Notes: a model not told the origin generated them from the sequence alone. A DNA stretch of 32,000 nt from Pseudomonadota bacterium (GCA_018242105.1 JAFECP010000013.1:40650-72649); one strand, 5' to 3'. Counted from the stretch's first letter, positions 18,092 to 32,000 are shown. Numbers and translations are program-made.

Positions 18092-18132
18092 TAAAAAAAT
18101 CGGCCGCGCGAACATTTCCGTCCGCACGGCCG
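18092..18132 (-). terminator. Rho-independent terminator immediately upstream of the small membrane protein gene
   Basis: On the minus strand: CGGCCGTGCG-GACGGAAATGTT-CGCGCGGCCG (9 of 10 positions pair), followed by ATTTTTTTAT. It ends about 30 nt before the SD of the 55-aa ORF. Confidence 0.65.
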
Positions 18133-18236
18133 AACGCATCGGCAAAACCGCAATGCCAGACGGCTTGCCGACATGTCTGGAATGTCTGATGGAGTGCCAA
18201 GTACGGTTCCGCAGTGCTTGGGAATCGGCTGTGGCG

Positions 18237-18957: not shown

Positions 18958-20499
18958 TCAGAGCCTTGCATCCAGAGCCAGATAGGCCGATTCACCGAGA
19001 TAGAGATTTCCCATGTCACCCACCGTTCCATTGAAACTTGTGCCAGCTTGCAGCCGCAAGACGATAGCGCTGCCAGTGTCGGCACCAGCCGTGGTCACAG
19101 TCAGCGCACCACTGATGGTCAGAAATCCGCTGCCAGCATTGTCGTAGAAGTTGAGTTGATTGCCGCTGGGTGAGCCACCGGCCCAGCTAGGGTTGCTATG
19201 CCGCAATACTGGAATACCCCGCATTTCCACCGGAAACTGGAACGGGCCATCGATGGTGAACGAAGCGGACTTCTGCATCAGGAAGCTTGCGGCCGCGAGG
19301 CTGCCGTTGGCGCGGCAGATGTCCTGATAGAAGCGCTTCGCGAGAAGAACTTCCCTCGGCCGGGGCCGCACGATGAACGGGGAATGCGCGGCATCGGGCA
19401 CATCGGCGAAGCTTGCCCCGGCAACAAGCGGCAGCACGCCAAGGCCCGTGATCTGAAAAACATCCGATGTCGCCGCCACCGCGTTCGCCGTTCCCGTGGC
19501 GCCACTGCAATCGCCCGCCGCCCACGCATCCGGCGTGCCGAGGCGCGAGGCGCCACCGGCGACGCAGATCGTGGCATAGAGACCGACGCTGGTGTCGATC
19601 GCCCAGGTTCCTGCCGTGTCGCCGGTGTTGACCAGAACGGATTTCATTTCCCATGTGTCAGCGGCATTGATGCTGAAGCCGAACGGATAGGAGCGCGTCT
19701 TGCCGGCATTTCGCAGCGATCCCGAAAACGCGCCAGTGCGATGCGACTTCACCCAGAAGAAGATTGCGCAGGCATTGGCCTGCGCCGTTCCGAATGCGAG
19801 CCGCGCGGCGTTCAGCCCTTCCACCGGAATGACGAGAGACAACTCGTCATTCACGCCGAGCGCAGATTGCGCCGTGGTGACCGCCAGTTTGAGCGAATTG
19901 CGAAAACCGGGCGGGCAATCCGCGACCTGCTGCGCGGATGCCGTGAAGCTTCCGCGGAAGGCCGCCATCACGCCATCGACAAGATATTTGGTCTGCAAGG
20001 TTCCGGTGGCTGAGAGCGCGACGCTGTTCACACCGTTCTCCTGGCTCACCTCCATGCCGCCGTTGATGTTGAGCAGCAGATCCGCCATCGCCTCGATAGG
20101 CGCGGCGCGGATGGCGGCGCGCGTCTGGTCCGGCACAAGGAGCGCGGGCGCGAGCGTGGCCGAATAGTCCAGCCAGTTGCCATCGTCATAAACGACGATC
20201 GCAGCCTCGTCGCTGACATAGGCGACGAGTCCCGCAAAGGGCGTGTAGAAGCGCCAGCCGCCATCGGCGCAATAGGCGATCTTGCCGTCCTGCCCCGCCC
20301 ATGCGCCGGTGCCGATGGCTTTGATCAGATAAGTGTCGCCGTCGGCAGGCGATGACGGCGGCGCGGAAAGATCGCGGTCCAGAAAGCGGGCGCAGAGCAG
20401 CGCATCGAATTGATAGAGCGCTTCATTGTGGGTGACGTGCTTTTGCGCCTGTGCGGCCGCGAGCAGCGGCGCACCGGCGCGCGGTGTGGTGTCTGTCAT
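18958..20499 (-). CDS. DUF2793-domain protein, putative GTA tail fibre or receptor-binding protein (513 aa)
   Basis: The N-terminus AQAQKHVTHNEALYQFDALLCARFLDRDLSAPPSSPADGDTYLIKAIGTGAWAGQDGKIAYCADGGWRFYTPFAGLVAYVSDE matches my memory of the DUF2793 signature. The remaining ~400 aa are Gly/Ala/Thr/Ser-rich and look beta-rich. It lies directly downstream of g15. Confidence 0.8.
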   Translation of the reverse strand: MTDTTPRAGAPLLAAAQAQKHVTHNEALYQFDALLCARFLDRDLSAPPSSPADGDTYLIKAIGTGAWAGQDGKIAYCADGGWRFYTPFAGLVAYVSDEAAIVVYDDGNWLDYSATLAPALLVPDQTRAAIRAAPIEAMADLLLNINGGMEVSQENGVNSVALSATGTLQTKYLVDGVMAAFRGSFTASAQQVADCPPGFRNSLKLAVTTAQSALGVNDELSLVIPVEGLNAARLAFGTAQANACAIFFWVKSHRTGAFSGSLRNAGKTRSYPFGFSINAADTWEMKSVLVNTGDTAGTWAIDTSVGLYATICVAGGASRLGTPDAWAAGDCSGATGTANAVAATSDVFQITGLGVLPLVAGASFADVPDAAHSPFIVRPRPREVLLAKRFYQDICRANGSLAAASFLMQKSASFTIDGPFQFPVEMRGIPVLRHSNPSWAGGSPSGNQLNFYDNAGSGFLTISGALTVTTAGADTGSAIVLRLQAGTSFNGTVGDMGNLYLGESAYLALDARL

Positions 20500-20516: not shown

Positions 20517-20635
20517 TTTCCTCCCCCGTTTACGGGGGAGGTGCTGAGCGAGTGCGAAGCGGAGGGGGCCGCCTCACGAATTCCCCCTCCGGCTCACTGC
20601 GTTCGCCTCCTCCCCCGTAAACGGGGGAGGAAAAA
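20517..20635. repeat. Nested-palindrome repeat, copy A (intergenic, between the g15 stop and the DUF2793 gene start)
   Basis: TTTCCTCCCCCG-TTTA-CGGGGGAGG + TGCTGAGCGAGTGCGAAGCGGAGGGGG + loop + CCCCCTCCGGCTCACTGCGTTCGC + CTCCTCCCCCG-TAAA-CGGGGGAGGAAAAA. The terminal hairpin modules are inverted copies of each other. Confidence 0.88.
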
Positions 20636-23600
20636 TCATGCGAAGAAAATCTCCGCCGTCTTGCCCGCGCCGCGCCCCACAACGCTGGAGAGCTGATAGA
20701 CGGTGAAGCGGAACGGCGAGGGCAAGCCGGACGGAAAATCGGCCGCGATCTGCGCGGCGGAATATGCAAGCGGCGCGGCGGCGTTGTTCAACGCGCGCTT
20801 CACCGCGCCCGCGCCGTCGAGGATCTCAACATCGTAGGCTTCGGCGGTTTCGCTCATGGGAATTTCGGTTTGATCCCAGCCGTCGCTGCCGGGCGAGCGG
20901 TCGCGGCGAATCCAGGAGAGGCGAAGATCGCCGCTGTCTGCATAGACCGCGCCCAACTGGCATGGCGCGAGAGGACGCATGCCGATGCCTTCGAATTGCA
21001 GTTCTGCGCCCCTATAGGCGGAATCGGAGATGGGCTTGCCTTTGGGACCCCACAGATATTGGAACGGCAGCGCATATTGATCCTGTGCCAGCGAAAGCTG
21101 CTGCAGCGCATTGTTGAGAACGACCGCCCGCGCGCCGGCAAGAACCGGATCGCGCATCGCGCCTTCGGTGCCCGCCTGCCCGCGCAGCAACCGCGACAGC
21201 ATCCATGTGCCCGGCGCGGTGAGCGTTGCTGCGGCGAATTGCAGGATTTCCCAGCCGCCGTCTTCATTCTCAATGGCGAGCGCATTGCCGCCCGCGAAAA
21301 CGGAAAGATCGTCCTGCGATGCCAGCGTGCCGTTATAGAGTTTGATACCGACACTGTTCACATCGTCCCAGCGCCAGGCGGGGCCGGAGAACAGATCGGT
21401 GGTGGTCTCGCCGATATCGGCGGCCAATGTGAGCGCGGTGTCGAGCTGGAAATTGGAATCCGTCGCGCTGCGCAGGATGAAGACCGAGCCGGGCCACGGA
21501 TCGGCATAAGCCGCGGCCAGCGGCGCCCACGCATTCCGATCGCCGCCCAGCAAAGGCAGATCGAGAAACACCGTCAGCGCACGGCCCGGCGCGGCGGGCT
21601 TCGCCGCCGCCAGAACGCGCGCCGCACCGGCGAATATCTCATAGATCGACGGATCGGTGGCGATGGCCTGAATGCCGCGCGCGCCGGCATCGCCGATCTC
21701 GTTGAGGCGCAGGCGGTGTGTGCGTCCGCCCGCGCTCAATTCCACTTCATCCGCCGGATCGAGCGACAGCCAGGATGGCGCGAGCGCGAATTGCGCCGTC
21801 TCCCGCTGCACCCACGCATCCTGCAACAGACGCGCGCCGATCCCGGAGGCCTGCGCCTGGTCCATCACGATGGGCAAGGTGGATTGCGCAACGCGGTCCG
21901 ACGCCGCCACCAGCCGCCGCGCTTCGGTGACGGATTGGCGGTAGTCGCCCGCATCGATGTAAACGACGCGCGAAGCCAGCGGCAGATCGGTTTCCTGCGC
22001 TCTGGTGAGCGAGAAGCCGAAGCTTGCATCGCCATCAGGCATGACGAGATCGCTTTCTTCCAGCGCCGTGGCGGCGGGCTGGCCGCGCATGCGGAACTTC
22101 ACCACGCCTTCGCTCTCCACCGCGTCGAAATGATAGGCGACCGACAGCGGCGTGATCGCATCGCGCGGGCTCATCGTGCCGGTGACGGCGAAACCGGTGA
22201 CGATGCCGGTGAGGCCGGAAACATCGTAAGCGGTGAAATTCGCGTCTTCACACAGCGCCGCAACGAGATCGGCGAGTTGCACCGCGCCAAGGCGCCCGTT
22301 CAGCCAATGGCCCAGCGTATAGTTGCCCGCATCACCCCACACATTCGACAGCGCCGGAAACGCCGGATAGGGCCGCGCGTCCCAGCACCATAGCCGCGTG
22401 TTCGCGATATCGACCATGCGGCCGGAATAAACGGACGACACCGGATTGTTGGCGTTGTTTGTCCAAAAATTCAGATGCGCTTCGAGGAAACGCCGCTGGA
22501 TGAGATCGTCCCGCGTGCCGTTCGAGTAATAGGGCAGGAAGCTTTCGCTGGATTTGGGATCGACGAAGACATTGGGCTGGTTGGAGCCCTTGTCCACCGC
22601 GGGGCATCCCAGCTCGGTGAAGACGATGGGCTTGCTCTGCGGCGCCCAATCCGTGGCGCTCGCGCTTTCGCTGCCGCCGGCGCGGTCATAATGGGTGCTG
22701 CTCCACCAGTTCCAGAAATCCTTCGCGCGCCAAACCCAAGGCTTGCCGAGCGCATCGGTGACCGGCGCGCGGGTTTGCGCGGCGCGGTCCGCATCGCTGG
22801 CATAATACCAGTCATAGCCCTCGCCGCCCCGGATGTTGCGCGTGAGATAAGCCGCATCGTGGATGCCGGTTGGGCCGTTGGCCGCGTCGTAATCCAAATG
22901 TGCCGTGCCATCGCGCCAATCGGAGAGCGGCATGTAATTGTCGATGCCGATGAAATCGATATTGGCGTCGCTCCACAGCGGATCGAGGTTGAACAGCACT
23001 GCGCCGGGCGCATCGCCCGTCTGGTGGTTGTTGTATTCGCTCCAGTCGGCGGCGTATCCGATCTTCGTGCTGCTGCCCAGAATCGCGCGCACATCGGCGG
23101 CGAGCGCCTTCAATGCCGCGACCGCCGGATAGGACGTTGCGCCGTCCCGCACCCGAGTGAGCCCGCGCAGTTCGGAACCGATCAGGAAAGAGTCCACGCC
23201 GCCCGCCGCCGCGCAGAGATGCGCATAATGCAGCACCATGCGCCGGTAGCCCCAATCGCTGCCGCCGGTCCATGAAACAACGGCGCCGTTGACAATGAAA
23301 TCGGATATCCGCGCGCCGCCGAAGAAGGCGCTCACCTGCGCTGCCGCCGCGCTTGTTTTGTCGGGCGAGCCGGAAACGCCCGGCGCGGGATCGCAGGTGA
23401 TGCGGCCGCGCCAGGGATAAGCGGGCTGGCCGTTCGCGCCGGTATAGGGATCGGTGAGCGCGTTGCCTTGCGGAACATCCATGAACAGGAATGGGCAGAA
23501 CATCACCTTCCACCCGCGCGCTTTCAGATCCGCGATCGCCTGCACGACGCTTTCGTCCGACGGTGTGCCGCCATAGGCGGGGCGGCCATCCACCGTGCTC

Positions 23601-24595
23601 ACGACATGCGCAGCATCGCGCGCGATGCCGTTGACGCTCCATATCTCGGGATAGGTTTGCTTGGTGGCGTTCTCCACGCCGGGCTTCACCGTGCAATCGC
23701 CGCAACGCAGATCGCCGCCGAACCAGCCGGCGACCAGCGATACCGCGCCGATGTTCGGTGCAAGCGCCTGTAACCGATCGAGTGAGGCGGCGATGTCGGC
23801 CACGCCCGCGGCGCTATGCGCGTTTTGCGGCGCGGTGGCGCCCGCGCCGTCGTCTGCAGTCACCACATCGGTGGCATAAACGAACTCGCCCGCGCCGGGG
23901 ATGAGCGCCACGCCGGGCAGAACATTCTCCAGCGCGCCGGGATCGGTATCGGAGATCGGGCGGACGATCTCGAACTGAAGCTGAGGTATGCGGTTGCCGA
24001 AAGCGGCAAGCGGCATGTCCTCGAACACGATATAAGAGAGGCCGCGATAGGCGGGCGTGTTGCCCTCCCCTTCGATTTCCTGGATCAGCGGGTCCTGCGG
24101 TTGTGTTTCATCGCCGGGATAGAAGCGCGTCGTGAAAGGCGACAGGTCCAGAAGATTGCCGTTGGCCCACGCACGGCCGATGGCGGCAACCCTGCCCGCG
24201 CACAAGCCAACCGCGAAAGAGATGGAATAGGCGTAATCGGTTTCGGTGACCGAACTGCCGCCGCCCTTGCCGCCCACGCTGGTTTTGGCGGTGCTGGATG
24301 TTTCCTTGAAGTTCGTCGCCCAGATGAGCTGCCCCGCCACGCGCATGCGCCCGAACACGCGCGGGATGGGCGCGCCTTCGGTGGAGGACTGGATGTTGAT
24401 GCCGCTGAGCCGCGGGCCTTGCCGCTGCATATTGGCGCCGGGCGCCAGCGTCGCATCGATCTCGCTGCCCGCGAACGCACCGATCGCGCCGCCGATGGCC
24501 GCGCCGGAGAGCGTGGCGCCGAAGATCGAGATGCCGCTGCCCAGCAGCGCATTGCCCACCGCCTCACCGGCGATGCCCAGAACAAGAGAGGCCAT
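20636..24595 (-). CDS. g15: GTA g15 homologue: large baseplate / host-specificity protein with a glycoside-hydrolase-like TIM-barrel (GTA_TIM) region and a phage-tail C-terminal part (1319 aa)
   Basis: Track ORF 20636..24664 was trimmed to ATG 24595. The N-terminus is MASLVLGIAGEAVGNALLGSGISIFGATLSGAAIGGAIGAFAGSEIDATLAPG...GPRLSGINIQSSTEGAPIPRVFGRMRVAGQLIWATNFKE. Mid-region: GVDSFLIGSELRGLTRVRD...IGYAADWSEYNNH...IDFIGIDNYMPLSDWRDG. Confidence 0.92.
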   Translation of the reverse strand: MASLVLGIAGEAVGNALLGSGISIFGATLSGAAIGGAIGAFAGSEIDATLAPGANMQRQGPRLSGINIQSSTEGAPIPRVFGRMRVAGQLIWATNFKETSSTAKTSVGGKGGGSSVTETDYAYSISFAVGLCAGRVAAIGRAWANGNLLDLSPFTTRFYPGDETQPQDPLIQEIEGEGNTPAYRGLSYIVFEDMPLAAFGNRIPQLQFEIVRPISDTDPGALENVLPGVALIPGAGEFVYATDVVTADDGAGATAPQNAHSAAGVADIAASLDRLQALAPNIGAVSLVAGWFGGDLRCGDCTVKPGVENATKQTYPEIWSVNGIARDAAHVVSTVDGRPAYGGTPSDESVVQAIADLKARGWKVMFCPFLFMDVPQGNALTDPYTGANGQPAYPWRGRITCDPAPGVSGSPDKTSAAAAQVSAFFGGARISDFIVNGAVVSWTGGSDWGYRRMVLHYAHLCAAAGGVDSFLIGSELRGLTRVRDGATSYPAVAALKALAADVRAILGSSTKIGYAADWSEYNNHQTGDAPGAVLFNLDPLWSDANIDFIGIDNYMPLSDWRDGTAHLDYDAANGPTGIHDAAYLTRNIRGGEGYDWYYASDADRAAQTRAPVTDALGKPWVWRAKDFWNWWSSTHYDRAGGSESASATDWAPQSKPIVFTELGCPAVDKGSNQPNVFVDPKSSESFLPYYSNGTRDDLIQRRFLEAHLNFWTNNANNPVSSVYSGRMVDIANTRLWCWDARPYPAFPALSNVWGDAGNYTLGHWLNGRLGAVQLADLVAALCEDANFTAYDVSGLTGIVTGFAVTGTMSPRDAITPLSVAYHFDAVESEGVVKFRMRGQPAATALEESDLVMPDGDASFGFSLTRAQETDLPLASRVVYIDAGDYRQSVTEARRLVAASDRVAQSTLPIVMDQAQASGIGARLLQDAWVQRETAQFALAPSWLSLDPADEVELSAGGRTHRLRLNEIGDAGARGIQAIATDPSIYEIFAGAARVLAAAKPAAPGRALTVFLDLPLLGGDRNAWAPLAAAYADPWPGSVFILRSATDSNFQLDTALTLAADIGETTTDLFSGPAWRWDDVNSVGIKLYNGTLASQDDLSVFAGGNALAIENEDGGWEILQFAAATLTAPGTWMLSRLLRGQAGTEGAMRDPVLAGARAVVLNNALQQLSLAQDQYALPFQYLWGPKGKPISDSAYRGAELQFEGIGMRPLAPCQLGAVYADSGDLRLSWIRRDRSPGSDGWDQTEIPMSETAEAYDVEILDGAGAVKRALNNAAAPLAYSAAQIAADFPSGLPSPFRFTVYQLSSVVGRGAGKTAEIFFA

Positions 24596-24611
24596 TTTGA
24601 TTTTCTTTCTT

Positions 24612-24647
24612 CCAAACAAAAACGGCGGCCCAATGGACCGCCGTTTT
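24612..24647 (-). terminator. Strong rho-independent (potentially bidirectional) terminator between the TPR lipoprotein gene and g15
   Basis: AAAACGGCGG-CCCAATGGA-CCGCCGTTTT is a perfect 10-bp stem. On the minus strand it is followed by TTTTTGTTTGG. It lies 22 nt after the TPR stop and ends 17 nt before the g15 ATG. Confidence 0.75.
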
Positions 24648-24668
24648 CCAAATGCGTGGTTCAAGTGT

Positions 24669-25337
24669 TCAGGGTGTCACGCCATAGCCGGCATACGTCT
24701 CAGCGACCTTTGGATCGATCGCTTTCGCTGCTGCGATGTCAGCATTGCCGTTTTGCAGGTCTGCCGTCTTCAATCGCGCGAGCCCGCGTACATAAAACGG
24801 CGACGCGGCTTTCGGATAGATGGAAAGAACTGCGGTAGTATCCGCAATCGCGGCAGAATAGTTCTTCATTCTGAATTCGACGAAGGCCCGGCTGTTCAAC
24901 GCGGCCGCGTCGCCGGGGCGCAGCGCAAGCGATTGATTGCAATCCGCCAGCGCCTGATCGAAAGGACCGCCGACCACTGCCCGGTCGAAACAGAGATTTT
25001 CGTAGATGCCCGGTCTGTTGGGATCGTGCCGACCACCCAGCGTCGTCGCTTGTTGGAGATCGGCGATGGCCAGATCGAACTTTCCGAGTTCCTGATAGGC
25101 GATCGCGCGCCCGTAACGCGGCCAGGAATAGCCCTGCCATACCATGGCCTGCGCTGCTGTGGTGCAATCGATCACGCGCTGCTCGGCGGGCTGCCCTTCG
25201 CGGCCCAGGCATCTGCCGGCGATATCCGTGGCGCCGCGCCCGACTTGCGCAAAGCCGGGCACACCGGCAGCGGCGGGCGCGCCACAACATGCAGCAAGAA
25301 CAAGAAGCGTGAGCGCAAATTCAGCGCGGTGTTTCAT
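24669..25337 (-). CDS. TPR-repeat lipoprotein (222 aa), non-canonical insert between GTA g14 and g15
   Basis: Track ORF 24669..25463 was trimmed to ATG 25337, preceded by AAGGGGGA. Lipobox signal MKHRAEFALTLLVLAACCG. TPR-like repeats include YGRAIAYQELGKFDLAIADLQQATTL and FDQALADCNQSLALRPGDAAALNSRAFVEFRMKNYSAAIADTTAVLSIYPK. Confidence 0.8.
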   Translation of the reverse strand: MKHRAEFALTLLVLAACCGAPAAAGVPGFAQVGRGATDIAGRCLGREGQPAEQRVIDCTTAAQAMVWQGYSWPRYGRAIAYQELGKFDLAIADLQQATTLGGRHDPNRPGIYENLCFDRAVVGGPFDQALADCNQSLALRPGDAAALNSRAFVEFRMKNYSAAIADTTAVLSIYPKAASPFYVRGLARLKTADLQNGNADIAAAKAIDPKVAETYAGYGVTP

Positions 25338-25404
25338 ATGTTCCCCCTTCGAAAACCTGCCCGCCCTCAAGAGGGTTCCATAACCATTGGTGGAGGACAA
25401 ATAT

Positions 25405-25938
25405 TTACAGCCGGAATACTGCCACGGTCTTTTGCTTCCAGAACAGCGAAAGCATCTCTTCATTCACGCACTTGTTCTGCCGCGCATGAATGAGCGTGAG
25501 CTTTCCTCCCCCGTTTACGGGGGAGGTGCCGAGCGCAGCGAAGGCGGAGGGGGCCTCCTCCCCCGTAAACGGGGGAGGAAAAGCACCTATGATCCCGCAA
25601 TGCTTGGCGGGACCGTTCGGCAGCATGCGAAAGAGCGCGGTGTCGCCGGGGGCGATGTCGCGCTTGTCGATCTCGCGCAGGTGGCGGGAGAGCGCTGCAT
25701 ATAATGTCTCCTCGCCGGTCGCTTCCGCCCAGTCCGGCGAATAAGGTGGCGCGGTTTCGGGTTCTTCGCCATGCAATTCGCGCCACACGCCGCGCAGCAG
25801 GCCCAGGCAATCGCAGCCCGCGCCTTTCACGCTCGCCTGATGGACATAGGGCGTGCCAATCCAGGAGCGGGCGGCTTCGACAATTTGCGCTTGCGAATTT
25901 TGCACGCGGAGACGCGGAGGCGCGGAGTCGTCCACCAT
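25405..25938 (-). CDS. g14: GTA g14 homologue, NlpC/P60 cell-wall peptidase, carrying a 27-codon in-frame repeat insertion
   Basis: IVEAARSWIGTPYVHQASVKGAGCDCLGLLRGVW (catalytic Cys), AKHCGII (His), LTLIHARQ (third triad residue), with C-terminus WKQKTVAVFRL. The start is uncertain: ATG 25938 (MVDDS), ATG 25950 (MTERM) or GTG 25905. The rest of track ORF 25405..26265 is read-through of repeats. Confidence 0.85.
   Translation of the reverse strand: MVDDSAPPRLRVQNSQAQIVEAARSWIGTPYVHQASVKGAGCDCLGLLRGVWRELHGEEPETAPPYSPDWAEATGEETLYAALSRHLREIDKRDIAPGDTALFRMLPNGPAKHCGIIGAFPPPFTGEEAPSAFAALGTSPVNGGGKLTLIHARQNKCVNEEMLSLFWKQKTVAVFRL
25502..25582. repeat. Nested-palindrome repeat, copy B (short form, 81 nt, intragenic in g14)
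   Basis: TTTCCTCCCCCG-TTTA-CGGGGGAGG + TGCCGAGCGCAGCGAAGGCGGAGGGGG + CCTCCTCCCCCG-TAAA-CGGGGGAGGAAAA. It lacks the second inner arm present in copies A, C and D. Confidence 0.88.
25903..25928. repeat. Left arm of a 26-nt long-range inverted repeat (three CGCGGAG units)
   Basis: CACGCGGAGACGCGGAGGCGCGGAGT pairs with the reverse complement of 26065..26090 at 24 of 26 positions. Confidence 0.6.
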
Positions 25939-25944
25939 TCTCTC

Positions 25945-26044
25945 CGTCATGGCCGCCCGCGTGACGGCCATCCATTTTCCAGAGGCGCGCGAAACCTGCT
26001 CTGCTTCTGGAAAATGGGTCCCCGGCATAAGGCCGGGGATGACG
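25945..26044. repeat. GTCATCCCGG-type palindromic repeat, copy F (degenerate, between g13 and g14)
   Basis: CCGTCATGGCCG...CCATTTTCCAGA-N22-TCTGGAAAATGG...CCCCGGC-ATAAG-GCCGGGGATGACGG. The termini CCGTCAT and ATGACGG are inverted. The right end matches the CCGGGATGAC end of copy E. Confidence 0.6.
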
Positions 26045-26064
26045 GTTGAGGGAGCAGGAAATGA

Positions 26065-26090
26065 ACTCCGCGACTCCGCGGCTCCGCGTG
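26065..26090. repeat. Right arm of the 26-nt long-range inverted repeat (three CTCCGCG units)
   Basis: ACTCCGCGACTCCGCGGCTCCGCGTG lies 5 nt downstream of the g13 stop in mRNA sense. Confidence 0.6.
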
Positions 26091-26095
26091 ATTTT

Positions 26096-26977
26096 CTAGT
26101 TTCCATATCTGCTGCCTCCATCCATCGGCTGGCTGGCGGTGGGATAGGCCAGCACCGCGTCGTTGCCGGGCATGTAGGGGAAGCCGCGGAAGTTGATCGC
26201 GTTGTTGAACTTGCTCTTGCAGGTGGCAAATTGCTTGTCGCATCCGGCGGTGATGGTGAAGGCATCGCCCGCCACGACCGCCTCGCTCATGGACTGCCAG
26301 AGCTCGATGGCGACGCCGGTGTGACGCTTCACTTCCATGGCGCGGCCCTTGTTCGCGCCGCCGGTCCACACAAGCTTGCCGCCGGTGAACCAGCCATCGC
26401 CGAAACTGCCGAGGCCGCTGACGGTGAAACGCCGCGCATCCGTGGCGCTGACCACCGCGCCGTCCGCACGGAATGCAGCGCGCGTGAGGTCGATGGTGCA
26501 GCGCGCATCGCCCAGATCGGCGTCGCAGCCATAGCCGAAGCAGCGCCCGACCGGCTGGTTCAAGATGTGGGCGAGCCCGCGCACCTCCGCCGTGAAGGCG
26601 CATACCCCACGTTTAACCTCGCCAAGATTTCCCTTGCGCATGAGCACGCGCTGGCTCACGTCGCTCCAATTCACGCGCCAGATCTCGATGCTCGCGTTGT
26701 CATAGAGACCGGCGGCAAGATCGGCGTCGTTGAGCGTGGACGACGACAGCGCGCCACTGACGGAGAGATTGTCGATCGCCAGATCGAGCAGGGACTGCAC
26801 TTCGGTGGCCGTGAAACCGGACGCGGCTTCATAGGTGACGCCATCGAAAGTCAGATCGGCATCGTGATCGGTGAAGCCTTGGGTAGCGCCATCGTTGCGC
26901 GCTATTTTCCAGCACCAGCACAAGGTGGTGGCGCCGCTATCGAGATGCGCCTGCATGCCTTCCGGCAAATTTTTCAT
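26096..26977 (-). CDS. g13: GTA g13 homologue (DUF2163 plus BR0599-type C-terminal domain, baseplate hub)
   Basis: MKNLPEGMQAHLDSGATTLCWCWKIARNDGATQGFTDHDADLTFDGVTYEAASGF... and C-terminal CDKQFATCKSKFNNAINFRGFPYMPGND. I prefer ATG 26977 (GGAG 7 nt upstream) over the track start 26995. Confidence 0.88.
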   Translation of the reverse strand: MKNLPEGMQAHLDSGATTLCWCWKIARNDGATQGFTDHDADLTFDGVTYEAASGFTATEVQSLLDLAIDNLSVSGALSSSTLNDADLAAGLYDNASIEIWRVNWSDVSQRVLMRKGNLGEVKRGVCAFTAEVRGLAHILNQPVGRCFGYGCDADLGDARCTIDLTRAAFRADGAVVSATDARRFTVSGLGSFGDGWFTGGKLVWTGGANKGRAMEVKRHTGVAIELWQSMSEAVVAGDAFTITAGCDKQFATCKSKFNNAINFRGFPYMPGNDAVLAYPTASQPMDGGSRYGN

Positions 26978-27004
26978 TTCATGCTCCATTGTCATGGTGA
27001 GAGA

Positions 27005-27631
27005 CTAGAGAGCCACTTCCACAAGAGGTATCGACGGAATCTCGCCCGCCGAGAAATTCGCCAGGTTGATCGAGAGCTGATCGGTGTCGAAGCGGACCGG
27101 CGTGTCGAAGGCGAAGCCCGCCGTGATCGCCGCGCCGCGGGCGGGTGGAGTGGTGAAGGTGACGAGGCCGGTGATGGAATCCACTCCGAAGCCGGTTGTT
27201 TGCGTGATTCCATCCACCGCGACGGTCACCGAACCGGCGGCGGGCTTCTTGATAATCCGCGTCCAGCTTGCGGGGCCGGAGGTATAGACCTTCTTCAACG
27301 GGAAGACAGTCGTACTGCCGTCGCCGGTGCCCAATGGCTGATCGGTGGCGGCGACGGTGCCGCCCGGCGCGCAGGATTGGTTGTCGGTGAAATCCTGCAG
27401 GCGGAATCCGTAAAGCCGGCCCATGCGCGCTTCGAAGAAGGCGATGACGGCGTGAAGGTCGTCCAGCGTCTTCACGCCGAAGCCGACATCGTAGGCGCGG
27501 CGGGAATTGGCCCACACCGCGTTGCGCTCCTCGAAACCGGAACCGAGCGTGACGATCTCCGTCTTGCGCGCCGGCCCCGCCGTGGAATGCATGGCGATGG
27601 AAGTAGGGAACTGAATTTCGTGGAAGTTCAT
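27005..27631 (-). CDS. g12: GTA g12 homologue (DUF2460 / TIGR02217-type distal tail protein)
   Basis: Track ORF 27005..27736 was trimmed to ATG 27631. MNFHEIQFPTSIAMHSTAGPARKTEIVTLGSGFEERNAVWANSRRAYDVGFGVKTLDDLHAVIAFFEARMGRLYGFRLQDFTD is the family N-terminus. Confidence 0.88.
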   Translation of the reverse strand: MNFHEIQFPTSIAMHSTAGPARKTEIVTLGSGFEERNAVWANSRRAYDVGFGVKTLDDLHAVIAFFEARMGRLYGFRLQDFTDNQSCAPGGTVAATDQPLGTGDGSTTVFPLKKVYTSGPASWTRIIKKPAAGSVTVAVDGITQTTGFGVDSITGLVTFTTPPARGAAITAGFAFDTPVRFDTDQLSINLANFSAGEIPSIPLVEVAL

Positions 27632-27667
27632 GGTAGTCTCTGTTGCGAGTTGATCGAAGCTGCTGGC

Positions 27668-27922
27668 ATGACACCGAAGCCCTGGTTCAGGTTTTTCTCC
27701 AAATGGGGACTGCCGTATCTCATCCTTCCCATTCATCCGATGGGATGCGGATTGATTTTGGCATTCATGTTTGGCGCTCTCGCTTGGGGAGCATTTTGCA
27801 TGTTCTGCAGGGGCGTCGGCCTGTTATCAGACAGCTTCGTTCCTGCAGTGCTCTTTTTGCCGCTCCTGTTTGCGTACATTCTCTTCATGCGGACTGTGCT
27901 CGAACATTCTGAGAAAAAATGA
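27668..27922 (+). CDS. Candidate small hydrophobic protein (84 aa) on the opposite strand, inside a low-GC insert between g11 and g12
   Basis: This is the last 84 codons of track ORF 25853..27922: MTPKPWFRFFSKWGLPYLILPIHPMGCGLILAFMFGALAWGAFCMFCRGVGLLSDSFVPAVLFLPLLFAYILFMRTVLEHSEKK. It has two clear hydrophobic helices and AT-rich third positions. There is no convincing SD, so coding status is unproven. Confidence 0.4.
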   Translation: MTPKPWFRFFSKWGLPYLILPIHPMGCGLILAFMFGALAWGAFCMFCRGVGLLSDSFVPAVLFLPLLFAYILFMRTVLEHSEKK

Positions 27923-27935
27923 ATAGCGGTCGCTG

Positions 27936-28472
27936 CTAAAGATTCCTCTGTCCTCTCGCCAACGCTCTGCTCATCATCGCGGCGATCTGGCTTTCGCTTT
28001 TCAGGAAGCTTTGCGCGTCGCGGGCGTTCACGTTCAGCACGATGGAGGCGCGCGACGGCGCGGCGAGATTGGCGTTCGAGGTGATGGCGCCGTTCTCGCT
28101 CGGCGTGAACAGTTCCGGGCCTTGCTCGCCGACGAGATAGGTCGCGCCCGGCGTGACAGGGCCGCCCACCGCGCGGCCACCGGCGACATCGAACAGCGAA
28201 CTCGCCAGATCGGAGATCAATCCTTCCACGGGCTTGGCGATGAAATCCTTCACCGCCACGCGGTCGAAGTCGGCCAGGATCGCGTCCACCATTTCGCTCA
28301 TCGAGGTTTTGCCGCTCACGGCGGCGCGCGCGATGGTGTTCGCCACAGAATTGAAGCTGGAATTCACCGTGCGCTCGATGGCGGCGCTGGTGGAGGCCAC
28401 CGGGCCGTTCGCGAAATCGGCGAAGGCTTGCGCCGCATCGTTCAGCACAGAGTCGATTGCATTATTGCTCAT
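27936..28472 (-). CDS. g11: GTA g11 homologue, short tail tape measure protein (178 aa)
   Basis: MSNNAIDSVLNDAAQAFADF... with the conserved TYLVGEQGPELFTPSENGAI motif. The short length fits a GTA-type short tail. Confidence 0.85.
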   Translation of the reverse strand: MSNNAIDSVLNDAAQAFADFANGPVASTSAAIERTVNSSFNSVANTIARAAVSGKTSMSEMVDAILADFDRVAVKDFIAKPVEGLISDLASSLFDVAGGRAVGGPVTPGATYLVGEQGPELFTPSENGAITSNANLAAPSRASIVLNVNARDAQSFLKSESQIAAMMSRALARGQRNL

Positions 28473-28569
28473 CGGGATAGGCTTTCATCATCTGCTCGAA
28501 ATCGGCGCGGGGGAGCGGGGCGCGCGGTTTTGCACCCGCGCACGCCGCGTTCCATTCGATCACGCTCAT
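28462..28569 (-). CDS. g10.1: GTA g10.1 homologue (rcc01693-like), minimal ATG-initiated form. The conserved frame extends upstream without a start codon.
   Basis: ATG 28569 gives MSVIEWNAACAGAKPRAPLPRADFEQMMKAYPDEQ. The stop TAA 28464..28462 overlaps the g11 start. The same frame is open upstream to at least 28740, reading ...PFGRWRQRLAFGLGRLKLSPNDFWS, and contains no ATG, GTG or TTG. Confidence 0.55.
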   Translation of the reverse strand: MSVIEWNAACAGAKPRAPLPRADFEQMMKAYPDEQ

Positions 28570-28595
28570 GCTCCAGAAATCATTTGGCGACAGCT

Positions 28596-28946
28596 TCAGG
28601 CGGCCGAGGCCGAAGGCGAGCCTTTGCCGCCAGCGGCCAAAGGGTCGCTCACCTCGCGGTTCACCAGCGCGAACACATCGGCGATGGCCTGCACGATGGT
28701 GGCCAGATCGACAGGCAGCCTGAGCACATCGTTCGCCGTCACGTCATGCCCGCCCGCGCGCAACAGTGCCGCGGCAACGGCGGCGATGTCCCCGGTGGCG
28801 AAGGATTTGAGGCGCGTAGCGAGATCCGAAAGGCTCGCCACGTTGAACGCAGCTTCGATCTCGGCCAATGCGCCGAGCGTGAGCCGCATCGTGAATTTCT
28901 CTCCTGCGGCCAGGAAGGATGTTTCGCCGCGAGCGGGGTTTGTCAT
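28596..28946 (-). CDS. g10: GTA g10 homologue (rcc01692-like, tail assembly chaperone-like), 116 aa
   Basis: Track ORF 28596..29096 was trimmed to ATG 28946, which has GGAGG 7 nt upstream. MTNPARGETSFLAAGEKFTMRLTLGALAEIEAAFNVASLSDLATRL... The extension in the track is read-through of repeat copy C. Confidence 0.8.
   Translation of the reverse strand: MTNPARGETSFLAAGEKFTMRLTLGALAEIEAAFNVASLSDLATRLKSFATGDIAAVAAALLRAGGHDVTANDVLRLPVDLATIVQAIADVFALVNREVSDPLAAGGKGSPSASAA
28638..28644 (-). other. Candidate -1 programmed frameshift heptamer C CCT TTG in the g10 zero frame
   Basis: The g10 codons GAC CCT TTG place CCCTTTG in X XXY YYZ phase. A -1 slip enters the g10.1 frame. A GC stem GGCGGC...GCCGCC starts 6 nt downstream. 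Confidence 0.35.
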
Positions 28947-28963
28947 TTGGTTTCCTCCATAAA

Positions 28964-29092
28964 TTCCCCCCCCGTTTACGGGGGAGGTGCTGAGCGCGCA
29001 CCTCGCGCGCGAAGTGGAGGGGGACTGTCGCGCGGGCGGCCCCCTCCAGCTCACCTCGTTCGCGTCCTCCCCCGTAAACGGGGGAGGAAAAA
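28964..29092. repeat. Nested-palindrome repeat, copy C (intergenic, between the g9 stop and the g10 start)
   Basis: TTCCCCCCCCG-TTTA-CGGGGGAGG + TGCTGAGCGCGCACCTCGCGCGCGAAGTGGAGGGGG + loop + CCCCCTCCAGCTCACCTCGTTCGCG + TCCTCCCCCG-TAAA-CGGGGGAGGAAAAA. Confidence 0.88.
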
Positions 29093-29509
29093 TCATGCGC
29101 TTGTGAACGCGAGGGCACCCGCCGACGCCAATGTCATGCTGAGCTTCAACTCCCCGTCATACGGCCCGTCATAGGCGAGCGCGGTGAGCTTGAACGGGCC
29201 TTGCACCGTGCCGAAGCTCGGGATGACGATCTGATAATTGGTCAGCGCCTGGTTGAAGAACGCCGTTCGCAGCGCCGCGTCCGACACGGCATCCTTGAAC
29301 ACGCCGCTGCCGGAGATGGACGCGGATTTCACGCCGCCGCCATCCAGCAGTTCGCGCCACTGATCGGCGGAGTCCGCATTGGTGACGTCCACCGTCTGCG
29401 CATTGAACGACAGCGTCGTGGCGCGCAATCCGGCGACGGTGGTGAAATTCTCCGGCGACGCACCATCGCCGATCTTGATGAGCAGGTCTTTGCCTTTTTG
29501 AGCAGTCAT
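29093..29509 (-). CDS. g9: GTA g9 homologue, major tail (tube) protein, TP901-1 family
   Basis: Track ORF 29093..29530 was trimmed to ATG 29509: MTAQKGKDLLIKIGDGASPENFTTVAGLRATTLSFNAQTVDVTNADSADQWRELLDGGGVKSASISGSGVFKD. Confidence 0.88.
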   Translation of the reverse strand: MTAQKGKDLLIKIGDGASPENFTTVAGLRATTLSFNAQTVDVTNADSADQWRELLDGGGVKSASISGSGVFKDAVSDAALRTAFFNQALTNYQIVIPSFGTVQGPFKLTALAYDGPYDGELKLSMTLASAGALAFTSA

Positions 29510-29534
29510 TTCTCTTCTCTCTTTCAACAACTGT

Positions 29535-29643
29535 TGTCATCCCGGAAGCGGAGCGCAGCGAAGCTATCCGGGACCCATTGTGCCGCGTGCGCGATGGGTC
29601 CCGGCTCGGCGCGATGCGTCCGCATCGCTTGGCCGGGATGACA
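29535..29643. repeat. GTCATCCCGG-type palindromic repeat, copy E (intergenic, g8-g9)
   Basis: Perfect 11-bp termini TGTCATCCCGG...CCGGGATGACA. Inner stems GGGACCCAT-N15-ATGGGTCCC and GCGATGCG-TCC-GCATCGC. It contains the 13-mer GAGCGCAGCGAAG, which is also present in copy B of the other family. Confidence 0.72.
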
Positions 29644-29649
29644 GTGGTG

Positions 29650-30060
29650 TTATGCCGGCTCGGTCACAGCTCTGAACCGCAGCGTTGCGCTGTAGGTTTC
29701 GCCGTCCGTCTCCCGCGCGTAATCGCAATTCAGAAACCGCAGATCCACCAGCGCGTGGCCGTTGAGCGAGAGGGTGGCGTTGTTGAGCCGGAAGCGGATC
29801 GCATCGGCGATGCTCTTGCTCTCCGCGTGGCCGCCATTGCGCGACCAGGCGGTGACGGCGAAGACATGCTCGCTGCCCTCTTCCGTCGCGGTGCCGGCGT
29901 TGGTCTCCTTGCCGTCGCCCAGCACCGCATAGGGAAAGGACGCGCCGCGCGGCACGGCATCGTAAATCCGCGGCGGCGTGCCGAGCAGCGACTGGATCGT
30001 CCCGTCGCCGGACAGCGCCGCGAACACCGCGCCCTGCAACGCGAAGCTGGCGTTGGTCAT
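29650..30060 (-). CDS. g8: GTA g8 homologue (DUF3168-type tail completion protein)
   Basis: Track ORF 29650..30327 was trimmed to ATG 30060, which overlaps the g7 stop as ATGA. MTNASFALQGAVFAALSGDGTIQSLLGTPPRIYDAVPRGASFPYAVLGDG... Confidence 0.82.
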   Translation of the reverse strand: MTNASFALQGAVFAALSGDGTIQSLLGTPPRIYDAVPRGASFPYAVLGDGKETNAGTATEEGSEHVFAVTAWSRNGGHAESKSIADAIRFRLNNATLSLNGHALVDLRFLNCDYARETDGETYSATLRFRAVTEPA

Positions 30061-30365
30061 GGCAGTTCCTCGCATTCGAGCGTGAGATAGTTGCCGCCGC
30101 CGTCCAGCACCGCATGGATGCGGAAGTTGCGCGTGCCGATGGCGGCTCGCTGGCCGGTGGCAATCGCGGCGTTGCGGCGGATGATGAGCTTGTGGCGCAC
30201 GCGGCTTTCCACCGCGTCCGGCCCATAGACATCGCCGCCGGATTGTGGCGCGATCCGCGTCCATAGCGTTGCGACGGTGTTCCAGCTTTCGCTGTAACCG
30301 CCGCCGCCGTCGGGAATCATCGTGCACGCGAGAACGCGCGCGCGCTGGTTCAGTTCGCCGATCAC
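30057..30365 (-). CDS. g7: GTA g7 homologue, head-tail adaptor (TIGR01563-like)
   Basis: (M)IGELNQRARVLACTMIPDGGGGYSESWNTVATLWTRIAPQSGGDVYG... The GTG start 30365..30363 overlaps the g6 stop as GTGA. Confidence 0.85.
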   Translation of the reverse strand: MIGELNQRARVLACTMIPDGGGGYSESWNTVATLWTRIAPQSGGDVYGPDAVESRVRHKLIIRRNAAIATGQRAAIGTRNFRIHAVLDGGGNYLTLECEELP

Positions 30366-30922
30366 AGCTTCACCACGCGATAAGGGGCCAGAAGCGCGAG
30401 CGCATCCTGCGGAAGTTCCGCCGCTTCGTCGCCGCGATGGGCGTAAAGCACGGCGGCGATTTGCAGGATCGCCTGCTGGAGCGGCGCGGGAACGTCGCTT
30501 GCCGCGCCATAACCGGCGGTGAAGGCAATCGCGATGGCGTTCAGCGCGCGCAGATTCACCGGTGGCGAAGCGTTTGGCTTCAGCGCCAGCCGCGCGGGCG
30601 ATGCGGCGCTATCGAATTGATAAGTTGAAGCATCGAGAACGATTGGCGTGCCGTCCATCGCATAGGCCGTGACCGACGCCACGCTTTGCAGCGGCGGCAA
30701 CGGAATCTCGACGATGCCGTTGCAGGGCCAACCATCGAGCCAGAGCGTCCAGCTCTGCGTGACGAAGGCGCGGCCGGTGTTCCACTCGGCGCGGGCGCGC
30801 GCGGCGGCGATGAGCGACGTAATCAGCGCGTCGTCATCTGTGGTGTCGACGCGCAAATGCGCTTTCGCCTGATCGAGCGTGATGGGCTCGGCGGAGGGCG
30901 GGGTGGTGAGTTGTAAAGACAT
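30362..30922 (-). CDS. g6: GTA g6 homologue, gp6-like head-tail connector
   Basis: Track ORF 30362..31030 was trimmed to ATG 30922: MSLQLTTPPSAEPITLDQAKAHLRVDTTDDDALITSLIAAARARAEWNTGRAFVTQSWTLWLDGWP. The extension in the track is read-through of repeat copy D. Confidence 0.85.
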   Translation of the reverse strand: MSLQLTTPPSAEPITLDQAKAHLRVDTTDDDALITSLIAAARARAEWNTGRAFVTQSWTLWLDGWPCNGIVEIPLPPLQSVASVTAYAMDGTPIVLDASTYQFDSAASPARLALKPNASPPVNLRALNAIAIAFTAGYGAASDVPAPLQQAILQIAAVLYAHRGDEAAELPQDALALLAPYRVVKL

Positions 30923-30930
30923 GATGATCC

Positions 30931-31071
30931 TTTCCTCCCCCGCTTTGCGGGGGAGGTGCCGAACGAATGTGAGGCGGAGGGGGTGGCTGCGGCGAAGCAA
31001 GTTCTGCTCTGCTATCGCCACCCCCTCCACCGCTTCGCGGTCCCCCTCCCCCGTAAAACGGGGGAGGAAAA
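30931..31071. repeat. Nested-palindrome repeat, copy D (intergenic, between the g5 stop and the g6 start)
   Basis: TTTCCTCCCCCG-CTTTG-CGGGGGAGG + TGCCGAACGAATGTGAGGCGGAGGGGG + ~40-nt loop + CCCCCTCCACCGCTTCGCGG + TCCCCCTCCCCCG-TAAAA-CGGGGGAGGAAAA. Confidence 0.88.
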
Positions 31072-31079
31072 GCGCCGCG

Positions 31080-32000
31080 CTAGCTGGCCGCGAACTTCAT
31101 TAGCTTGATGGCTTCGAAGTTCTGGACGCCGCCGCCGACGCGCTTGGTGGTGTAGAACAGCACATAGGGTTTGGCGCTGAACGGATCGCGCAGCACGTTG
31201 ATGCCGACACGGTCCACGATGAGATAGCCGCGCGCGAAATCGCCGAACGCGATGGAGAAGCTGTTCGATGCGATGTCCGGCATGTCTTCCGCTTCCGCCA
31301 CCGGATAGCCGAGCAGCGAGGCGGATTGGCCCGCGGCGACGCCCGGCTGCCAGATATAGTTGTCGTCGCCGTCCTTGAACTTGCGGATGGCGGCTTCGGT
31401 CTTGCGGTTCATCACCCAGGCGCCGTTGGCGCGGTAACCCTGCTTCGGCGCATAGGCGAGATTGATGAGCGCATCGGCTGGATCGGATGACGCAAACGCG
31501 CCATCCGCGCCCGACGCGACATAGCCCAGCTTGCCCCACGCCCACGACGCATCCGCCACGATGGTGGATTGCAGGAAGCCGGTGGGCTTGGCGGAGCCGT
31601 CGCCATTGATGAAGGCGGCGCCTTCCTGTTCGGCGAACACAATCTGCACTTCGTTGGCGAGCCATTGCTCGATGTCCACCTGCGCGTCATCCAGCAGCGT
31701 CTGCGTCGCGGCGGGCATCGCGTACAATTCCATCGCCGGGAAATCGAGCGCGGCGATGGTCGGCGTGGTGGTCTGCGTGCGCGAATCGGTTTCGCCGACC
31801 CAGCCGGACGCAGCTTCCACCGTCGTGACCGGCTTGCGATAGGTGTTGCCGCCGATCTGTTGCACCGTCGCCAGCGCGCGGATCGGGGATGCCTTCGCCA
31901 GAACGCGGTCGATGGTCTGCGCGATCTCCAGCGGCACGACATAGCCGCCATCGGCGTTGCTGCCCACGCTCATCGCCTTGGTTTCGAACGTGCCATCGCC
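31080..32000 (-). CDS. g5: GTA g5 homologue, HK97-family major capsid protein. C-terminal ~306 codons only; the 5' end is beyond the right edge.
   Basis: ...GGYVVPLEIAQTIDRVLAKASPIRALATVQQIGGNTYRKPV...MELYAMPAATQTLLDDAQVDIEQWLANEV...ANGAWVMNRKTEAAIRKFKDGDDNYIWQPG...GYLIVDRVGINVLRDPFSAKPYVLFYTTKRVGGGVQNFEAIKLMKFAAS. The frame stays open upstream of the track ATG 31973, as far as position 32000. Confidence 0.92.
   Translation of the reverse strand, partial: GDGTFETKAMSVGSNADGGYVVPLEIAQTIDRVLAKASPIRALATVQQIGGNTYRKPVTTVEAASGWVGETDSRTQTTTPTIAALDFPAMELYAMPAATQTLLDDAQVDIEQWLANEVQIVFAEQEGAAFINGDGSAKPTGFLQSTIVADASWAWGKLGYVASGADGAFASSDPADALINLAYAPKQGYRANGAWVMNRKTEAAIRKFKDGDDNYIWQPGVAAGQSASLLGYPVAEAEDMPDIASNSFSIAFGDFARGYLIVDRVGINVLRDPFSAKPYVLFYTTKRVGGGVQNFEAIKLMKFAAS

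Follow-up and report, generated by a model that had tools for sequence, protein, structure and literature searches.

Do palindromic repeats that stand between the genes of a gene transfer agent (GTA) serve that agent, or are they mobile sequences that have settled there? We asked this question of a 32,000-nt stretch of DNA (referred to here as the window) from the metagenome-assembled genome of an uncultured Pseudomonadota bacterium (GCA_018242105.1, JAFECP010000013.1:40650-72649), whose nearest named relatives belong to Rhizomicrobium (Micropepsaceae). Four copies of a nested palindrome, A to D, lie within the GTA cluster of the window. A preliminary description of this DNA took the family to be confined to that cluster, placed three of its copies directly after g5 (major capsid), g9 (tail tube) and g15, and suggested that they set the stoichiometry of structural proteins as 3' stabilisers or partial attenuators. 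The gene map agrees with this placement. [quoted passage not shown]

A dispersed modular palindrome

Reading of the sequence and a repeat search of the window, which returned loci A to D as direct and inverted repeat families, confirmed the four copies and their positions. The hairpin CCTCCCCCG-N4-CGGGGGAGG occurs six times in the window and its N5 form twice, whereas dinucleotide shuffles give an expectation of 0.01. A covariance model of the half-element, built from 44 diverse half-elements and run over the window with filters off, found seven full modules with scores of 27.9-63.9 bits. Copies A, C and D contain two full modules each, while B contains one and a bare second hairpin. Since the best score outside A to D was only 8.8 bits (E = 2.2), the left 20 kb of the window is without a copy, as the preliminary description had stated for the genes to the left.

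By comparing several hundred related copies we found that each half-element consists of a first hairpin (P1), a TG or GGG linker, a second hairpin (P2) and GGAGGGGG. P1 is a 9-bp G+C hairpin composed of CCTCCCCCG, a loop of 4-5 nt and CGGGGGAGG. Two such modules in inverted orientation, with a spacer between them, make up a full element of approximately 120 nt, and the G-tract of one module pairs across the spacer with the C-tract of the other. The module's variable part is P2. Hairpins of at least 4 bp, with many different stems, are formed by 108 of its 116 distinct sequences, and its minimum free energy per nucleotide is -0.39 compared to -0.18 for shuffles (Wilcoxon p = 2e-19). The P2 triloops are mostly C-GNA-G (57 of 71), which is the motif of d(GCGAAGC), a DNA mini-hairpin of unusual stability; we take this as a hint that the hairpins matter as single-stranded DNA. 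Terminal inverted repeats of about 25 nt (TTTCCTCCCCCG..) are present, and the 24 nt outside P1 are conserved only in their T-rich last 3-4 bases (TTT or TAT).

The architecture that the preliminary description ascribed to all four copies is indeed a modular nested palindrome, and the signatures and flanks by which it separated an A/C from a B/D subtype are correct, but the copies are less uniform than it held. Copies A, C and D, with lengths of 119-141 nt, are inverted doublets. The right inner arm of B is entirely missing, the left hairpin of C carries one mismatch (CCCCCCCCG), and the right half of D is of another module variant (GGG-ACCGCGAAGCGGT) than its left half. Doublets of the family often have such unlike arms, and the right arm of D is matched by copies in Caulobacter, Mesorhizobium, Devosia and Kumtagia loci.

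The RNA folding that the preliminary description proposed for each copy gave structures far more stable than those of shuffles, with free energies of -64 to -106 kcal/mol (z -7.5 to -10; A -86.5 with z = -10, C -90.5 and D -105.9 kcal/mol), and the same holds when the copies are folded as DNA (z -7.8 to -10). One long hairpin is the fold of lowest energy, and a structure in which the terminal hairpins must form locally is only 7-13 kcal/mol less stable; both of the alternative folds put forward earlier, local hairpins and one long structure, are plausible. An Rfam search of the copies returned nothing at gathering thresholds, and the overlapping matches at E <= 5 were far below gathering and chiefly miRNA-precursor-like long hairpins.

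We found that the family extends far beyond GTA clusters. A genome scan with the bare hairpin pattern, which is very permissive, returned at least 120 genome loci, and 37 of the 120 loci listed contain full modules. These are mostly from Alphaproteobacteria of many orders, including Caulobacter, Brevundimonas, Mesorhizobium, Devosia, Reyranella, Rhizomicrobium, Maricaulis, Parvularculaceae and Allosphingosinicella, among others. The subtype 18-mer CGGGGGAGGTGCYGARCG is present in more than 120 metagenome contigs and in 12 IMG/VR contigs, and the covariance model identified 110 modules in 100 of the metagenome loci listed. GTA genes were found in only 3 of the 120 metagenome loci listed, while the genes that end beside a module include those for L-asparaginase II, an SDR, glucose-6-phosphate dehydrogenase, ornithine cyclodeaminase, Ku, LigD and a transporter. 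Since modules lie beside housekeeping genes and in many genomes, the family is not GTA-specific; its supposed confinement to the GTA cluster is true within the window and fails outside it, where numerous unrelated contigs carry the family next to such genes.

The stop codon of a long, GC3-rich open reading frame (ORF) lies within 12 nt of the module end in 18 of 71 cases, compared to 2.4% of random positions. Gene starts are not enriched at module ends (6 of 71, compared to 11.6% in the control), and we rejected the idea that the elements are a Shine-Dalgarno source for the downstream gene. In the metagenome loci the modules form 32 doublets, with a median length of 119 nt, alongside 26 solo copies and 2 arrays. 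Several copies within approximately 10 kb also occur outside GTAs (loci L135, L229 and L171), and the number of further copies per 10 kb, given one copy, is 0.21-0.28 in metagenome loci compared to 0.35-0.37 in GTA loci. Unlike the inverted doublets, the tandem arrays at L245 5912-6290 and L252 3062-3223 consist of at least three half-elements in direct orientation with a spacing of approximately 70-200 nt. A blastn search with copy D against the PLSDB plasmids gave no match.

Copies and junctions in the GTA operon

Within the operon, copy A follows the g15 stop (TGA, 20636-20638, minus strand) without a gap, and 17 nt separate its other end from the ATG of the DUF2793 gene (Table 1). Because this gene lies downstream, copy A is internal to the transcription unit, not at its end. 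Copy C likewise directly adjoins the g9 stop (29093-29095) and leaves 17 nt to the g10 ATG (28946), and copy D lies 8 nt past the g5 stop (31080-31082) and 8 nt ahead of the g6 ATG (30922). We considered whether copies C and A supply the stops of g9 and g15, given that the flank CGCATGA is common to both, and rejected this for g9: the last codon is native (..AGCGCA TAA in relatives), and the native C-terminus ..FTSA* of g9 is kept in relatives. The g15 product ends in ..FFA* in the window, compared to ..FFS* or ..FFF* in relatives, and copies A and C have a 14-nt flank in common (CGCATGATTTTTCC); on these grounds copy A may be a duplicate of C that brought a few flanking bases with it. On the minus strand, the last codons of g15 (20640-20656) and of g9 (29097-29110) each contain a small hairpin followed by AUGAUUUUUCC.

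Table 1. Positions in the window of copies A to D, their parts, and the neighbouring genes.
Feature	Coordinates	Strand	Remarks
Copy A	20517-20635	.	Full inverted doublet
Copy A, left half	P1 20520-20541; TG and P2 20542-20560; GGAGGGGG 20561-20568
Copy A, right half	Spacer 20569-20582; CCCCCTCC 20583-20590; P2' 20591-20608; P1' 20609-20630
Copy B	25502-25582	.	Shortened doublet, 81 nt
Copy B, parts	P1 25505-25526; TG and P2 25527-25545; GGAGGGGG 25546-25553; P1' 25557-25578
Copy C	28964-29092	.	Full doublet
Copy C, left half	P1 28966-28987; long P2 28988-29015; GGAGGGGG 29016-29023
Copy C, right half	CCCCCTCC 29040-29047; P2' 29048-29065; P1' 29066-29087
Copy D	30931-31071	.	Doublet with unlike arms
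Copy D, left half and centre	P1 30934-30956; TG and P2 30957-30975; GGAGGGGG 30976-30983; central hairpin 30984-31020
Copy D, right half	CCCCCTCC 31021-31028; P2' (ACCGCTTCGCGGT) 31029-31041; P1' 31045-31067
g5, major capsid	31080-31973	-	Pfam Phage_capsid, E = 3e-91; listed ORF probably N-terminally incomplete
g6	30362-30922	-
g7, g8	29650-30365	-
g9, tail tube	29093-29509	-	Pfam Phage_tail_2, E = 8e-46
g10	28596-28946	-
Tape measure	27936-28472	-
g12	27005-27628	-
g13	26096-26977	-	Protein MBS0273728.1
g14, NlpC/P60 (C40) tail peptidase	25405-25938	-
TPR lipoprotein	24669-25337	-	Between g14 and g15
g15 (GTA TIM-barrel / Rcc01698-like)	20636-24595	-	Pfam GTA_TIM, E = 6e-149
DUF2793, tail-fibre-like	18958-20499	-	Pfam DUF2793; PHROG tail-fibre families

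Similar to the intrinsic terminators that follow phage capsid and tail genes, the copies place a strong hairpin directly 3' of a structural gene, and G+C-rich hairpins at gene ends, together with the true terminator-like hairpins that some relatives have after g5, would fit intrinsic (Rho-independent) terminators splitting the GTA operon into several transcripts. We regard this as highly improbable. On both strands, each terminal hairpin has a T-run before it and an A-run after it, and no U-tract follows any of the eight terminal hairpins in A to D, so these are not intrinsic terminators, nor the intrinsic form of the partial attenuators that had been suggested. A terminator scan of the window found 16 candidates compared to 12.6 +/- 3.1 expected, which is no excess, and called none of the A to D hairpins themselves; a hairpin resembling a terminator, complete with T-run, is found at 18100-18133 (minus strand). 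Furthermore, the genes downstream of the copies are essential GTA parts, and B lies within coding sequence.

We compared the junctions of the operon across 80 related GTA clusters, which were chosen by capsid homology regardless of the element, and a syntenic Rhizomicrobium contig (L331), whose DNA is 80-89% identical to the window. Copy A is missing between g15 and the DUF2793 gene in L122, L130 and L331, where the gaps are 13, 42 and 52 nt, respectively. Copy B is missing in L122, L255 and L331, while in L130 it is present and longer. The ancestral state of the g9-g10 junction is an overlapping TGATG; in the window's clade this junction contains copies of the window type (H-type) in L254, L255 and L272, and unrelated palindromes in L253, L122, L303, L290, L302, L256, L277 and L260. 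In L122 an H-type copy lies at g8-g9 instead of g9-g10. Since relatives lack A and B and carry unrelated palindromes at the same junctions, the identity of the element at a junction turns over fast. Several relatives (L273, L121, L289 and L257) have long non-palindromic insertions at g9-g10.

The g5-g6 junction contains H-type copies in the window, L253, L128, L283 and L291. Its occupants in other relatives are palindromes of a CCTCCCCTTGAGGGAGGG type, of a GTCATCCCGG type and of a heptamer type, or a plain hairpin with a T-run, i.e., a terminator (L276, L301, L295, L274, L293 and L304). The loop of these terminator hairpins, CCTCCCC or TTCTCCCCC, is anti-Shine-Dalgarno-like and lies a few bases upstream of the g6 ribosome-binding site, with which it could pair.

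The preliminary description's proposal of GTA-associated devices, which set the amounts of structural proteins from positions after g5, g9 and g15, accounts for the placement of three copies, for their very stable RNA folds and for the recurrence of H-type copies in the GTA clusters of relatives. Our data on distribution largely refute this proposal, and we consider it improbable. The family is dispersed beside housekeeping genes, and extra copies occur at similar rates inside and outside GTA loci. Copy B is in frame inside g14, which does not suit a stoichiometry device, and syntenic relatives lack A and B and have other palindromes at the junctions of C and D; L122 has an H-type copy at g8-g9 and another family at g9-g10. 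Moreover, g15 is not a high-copy protein. Liang, Rudd and Deutscher reportedly found in 2015 that a REP within 15 nt of a stop codon lowers, rather than raises, translation of the upstream gene, which for A and C would argue against the idea that the copies favour high-copy proteins.

We reasoned that a function might instead belong to the site. Junctions were counted in the close clade, the g5-g6 count comprising 42 non-redundant relatives with at least 77% identity in g5. A gap of at least 60 nt separates g5 and g6 in 41 of these 42, and 38 are strongly structured. Gaps of this size were found in 15 of 26 relatives at g6-g7 (15 strongly structured), 0 of 25 at g7-g8 (0), 13 of 22 at g8-g9 (8), 12 of 35 at g9-g10 (8), 14 of 29 at g11-g12 (5), 11 of 28 at g12-g13 (9) and 3 of 21 at g13-g14 (3). 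The gap after the capsid gene is the only junction that is nearly always structured, which makes a stabiliser or attenuator role of the site after g5 plausible.

It is possible, though we would not favour it, that the GTA operon of this clade needs a strong RNA hairpin after the capsid gene, and perhaps after other structural genes, to stabilise or attenuate the message, and keeps any palindromic repeat that lands there; D, and possibly C, would then serve a function despite belonging to a family that is not GTA-specific. In phages the major capsid gene is often followed by a hairpin, and the occupants of g5-g6 belong to at least five unrelated palindrome families, with a plain terminator in the six relatives noted above. 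However, the same picture would arise from an old, permissive gap into which repeats are drawn, the g5-g6 junction of L282 has no element and only 15 nt, and D is without a U-tract. The g9-g10 junction, with its ancestral overlap, is occupied in only about a third of relatives, and g6-g7, g8-g9, g11-g12 and g12-g13 are also often filled, which indicates no special link to high-copy proteins.

Other features of the cluster were observed alongside the four copies. Two further strong palindromes of another family lie at 25941-26045 (g13-g14) and 29540-29650 (g8-g9); their ends, TGTCATCCCGG...CCGGGATGACA, resemble the CGTC-tagged REPs of Alphaproteobacteria, and they bring the repeat elements of all families in the window's GTA cluster to six. 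In L331 this CGTC-like family is found at g11-g12 and g12-g13 instead. The tetratricopeptide repeat (TPR) protein between g14 and g15 has a lipoprotein-like signal sequence (MKHRAEFALTLLVLAACCG) and is outside the classical RcGTA gene set; one or two TPR lipoprotein genes occupy the same place in L122, L130 and L332. Between g11 and g12, an A+T-richer stretch (27643-27912, plus strand) contains an opposite-strand ORF of 89 aa, whose C-terminal half is very hydrophobic (...GLILAFMFGALAWGAFCMF...LFLPLLFAYILF...) and which has no PHROG match.

Copy B and the g14 loop

Copy B is not intergenic. It comprises 27 codons in frame inside g14, where the translation reads ...AKHCGIIG[AFPPPFTGEEAPSAFAALGTSPVNGGG]KLTLIHARQNK..., and it has the catalytic His of 'AKHCG' on one side and the His of 'LIHA' on the other. 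In the NCBI annotation the interrupted gene is an intact C40 peptidase of 177 aa, and C42, H113 and H151 are invariant in an alignment of 51 g14 homologs. Approximately 25 homologs found by tblastn are without the insert and have a 6-aa loop in its place, while in L130 this site is taken by a longer version of the element, 120 nt and in frame. An AlphaFold2 model places the insert between two strands with a pLDDT of 44-52; given that the whole model is weak (mean pLDDT 62), it argues only loosely that the insert sits in a loop.

We measured the loop between 'KHCG..' and '..IHA' in the best 120 homolog clusters of a g14 protein search. The loop has its base length in 69 of these clusters and is expanded to 12-69 aa in the other 51. 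The peptides of the expanded loops are translations of at least six palindromic repeat families: FPPPFTGE...SPVNGGGK (H-type), SPLWGGR...SPQGGG, FPPPERGRSIREADRV...SLFKGGN, SPRPHACGGEG..., ATASLLER repeats and others. L332 carries an insert of 132 nt, a palindrome (dG -83 kcal/mol) that belongs to a cousin family with the same plan of P1, P2 and G-tract. Every tblastn alignment of g14 that reaches past the loop stays in one frame throughout, although protein matches can show only in-frame insertions. These data mark the g14 loop as a hot spot at which repeats insert in frame.

Outside g14, we found 39 candidate ORFs that span elements. Nine of the 10 longest are Arg-rich spurious frames typical of high-GC DNA, and the tenth (L243) is a real gene that has the element upstream of it. 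Nothing here, then, indicates that in-frame insertion is common beyond g14.

The hairpin slot after the capsid gene and the g14 loop could be regarded together, with Rhizomicrobium-like GTAs using repeats as interchangeable parts: the slot would have to contain a strong hairpin and would be refilled by whichever family is active, while a repeat-driven, hypervariable g14 loop would diversify a surface of the tail tip. We consider this scheme speculative and rather unlikely. For g14, the insertions of 12-69 aa from at least six families, which lie between the second and third catalytic residues, would serve this end.

Likeness to known repeats, mobility and meaning

A REPIN is an inverted REP doublet that forms a hairpin (Bertels and Rainey, 2011; PMC3116915). 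The window family is similar to REPINs and to BIMEs (bacterial interspersed mosaic elements) in its short G+C-rich palindromic units, which form inverted doublets around a spacer and also occur solo, in the long hairpin predicted in single-stranded DNA or mRNA, in its extragenic location near gene 3' ends, and in stems that covary such that the palindrome is kept. The likeness to REPs noted in the preliminary description holds for the inverted doublets A, C and D, each with one long hairpin as its minimum-energy fold, and for the proximity to stop codons. In contrast to REPs and REPINs, the family has no unpaired GTAG or GT(A/G)G head, its arm consists of two hairpins and a G-tract rather than a single palindrome, and its arms are often unlike variants.

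REPs of the GTAG/CGTC type are found less than 20 bp from the 3' ends of ORFs, with termini that supply stops and with intragenic dimers that encode 20-30 aa (Di Nocera et al., 2013; PMC3733652). The window family shares with them its occurrence in Alphaproteobacteria, head-to-head dimers as the main form, a position less than 20 bp downstream of ORFs with ends that can abut stops, and in-frame intragenic dimers in the same size range; similar to CGTC REPs, it is without a known transposase. Its 9-bp stem and loop of 4-5 nt also fit CGTC REPs. These have an unpaired CGTC, TGTC or CCTC tag, a stem of 8-9 bp that opens with A/T pairs and a CCA tail, whereas the window-family stem is all G/C save one T-A pair and is followed by TG or GGG, and its CCTC is paired with GAGG rather than being an unpaired tag.

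Copy B behaves similarly to Rickettsia palindromic elements (RPEs; reviewed in PMC10969869) since it is palindromic, is in frame, encodes a loop peptide of approximately 27 aa and leaves the catalytic residues in place. The lengths of B (81 nt) and of its L130 counterpart (120 nt) are multiples of 3, and the frame is intact. However, the sequences are unrelated to RPEs, the window family is mostly extragenic, the host is a free-living soil alphaproteobacterium, and the g14 loop has been hit by several unrelated repeat families. With MITEs such as Correia, ERIC and Chunjie, the family shares a length of approximately 80-150 bp, terminal inverted repeats, co-transcription in operons and stable RNA stem-loops, and similar to Chunjie it sits inside an operon without breaking it. 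Unlike these MITEs it is G+C-rich rather than A+T-rich; it has no known parent insertion sequence, and neither a target-site duplication nor a promoter or IHF site was evident. A literature search with the hairpin sequence returned unrelated papers only, and searches on GTAs with palindromic repeats and on REPINs in Alphaproteobacteria returned nothing on this element, for which no name was found. We conclude that the window family, with its compound module of P1, P2 and G-tract, is a new and unnamed addition to the REP/REPIN/MITE-like repeats.

We propose that the elements spread or are exchanged as DNA, most likely as single-stranded hairpins handled by a trans-acting enzyme. They would settle where tolerated, mostly within a few bases 3' of a stop codon and now and then, in frame, in a protein's surface loop, and four copies would in this way have landed in the GTA operon of a Rhizomicrobium-like genome. 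Transcribed as part of the operon, the copies would give RNA hairpins of great stability that have no U-tract. In mRNA, REP, ERIC and Correia elements are described as blocking 3' exonucleases or attracting RNases (PMC10969869), and by analogy the hairpins of A to D may bar 3' exonucleases or serve as RNase targets. The copies would also break the translational coupling between adjacent genes that relatives show. Such effects at the RNA level would be side effects, not the reason for the existence of the family.

Several observations weigh against the reading of A to D as mobile, non-autonomous repeats. Four copies within 10.5 kb place the window at the high end among loci, and a strongly structured g5-g6 junction in 38 of 42 relatives is more than passive tolerance predicts and hints at selection on the site. 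A scan of 2.26 Mb of loci for motifs of REP-associated tyrosine transposases (RAYTs) returned one RAYT-like gene (L039), which is flanked by a different REP, and no transposase-like ORF was found flanked by modules or between neighbouring elements. No target-site duplication is visible at A or B in comparison with the empty sites of L122, L130 and L331, because these relatives are too diverged (80-89% identical). Finally, the single-stranded route is one that we infer from the GNA triloops. A tblastn search with a RAYT against plasmids gave no match, and no parent insertion sequence was found for the family.

The RAYT-like gene of L039 (6350-7030) encodes a Y1 transposase and has its own REP (GAGCGGGCCTGGAGGCCCGCGGTCCCA) on both sides. 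An H-type doublet lies 1.9 kb from it, which means that this genome contains at least two repeat systems.

For annotation, the elements explain odd gaps in this clade's GTA clusters, as well as N-terminal extensions and loop 'insertions' in predicted GTA proteins. The compound module is widespread in Alphaproteobacteria with no known mobilising enzyme, and its occupied, empty and replaced sites form a natural series from which the way such repeats move might be learned. Should the elements leave both expression and protein function unaffected, they would be ordinary selfish DNA. More surprising than the family itself are its surroundings, with many repeat families settled at the GTA junctions of this clade and with an insertion hot spot in the g14 loop. 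A GTA operon, usually described as tightly packed and translationally coupled, can absorb many repeats, one of them inside an enzyme gene, and stay intact.

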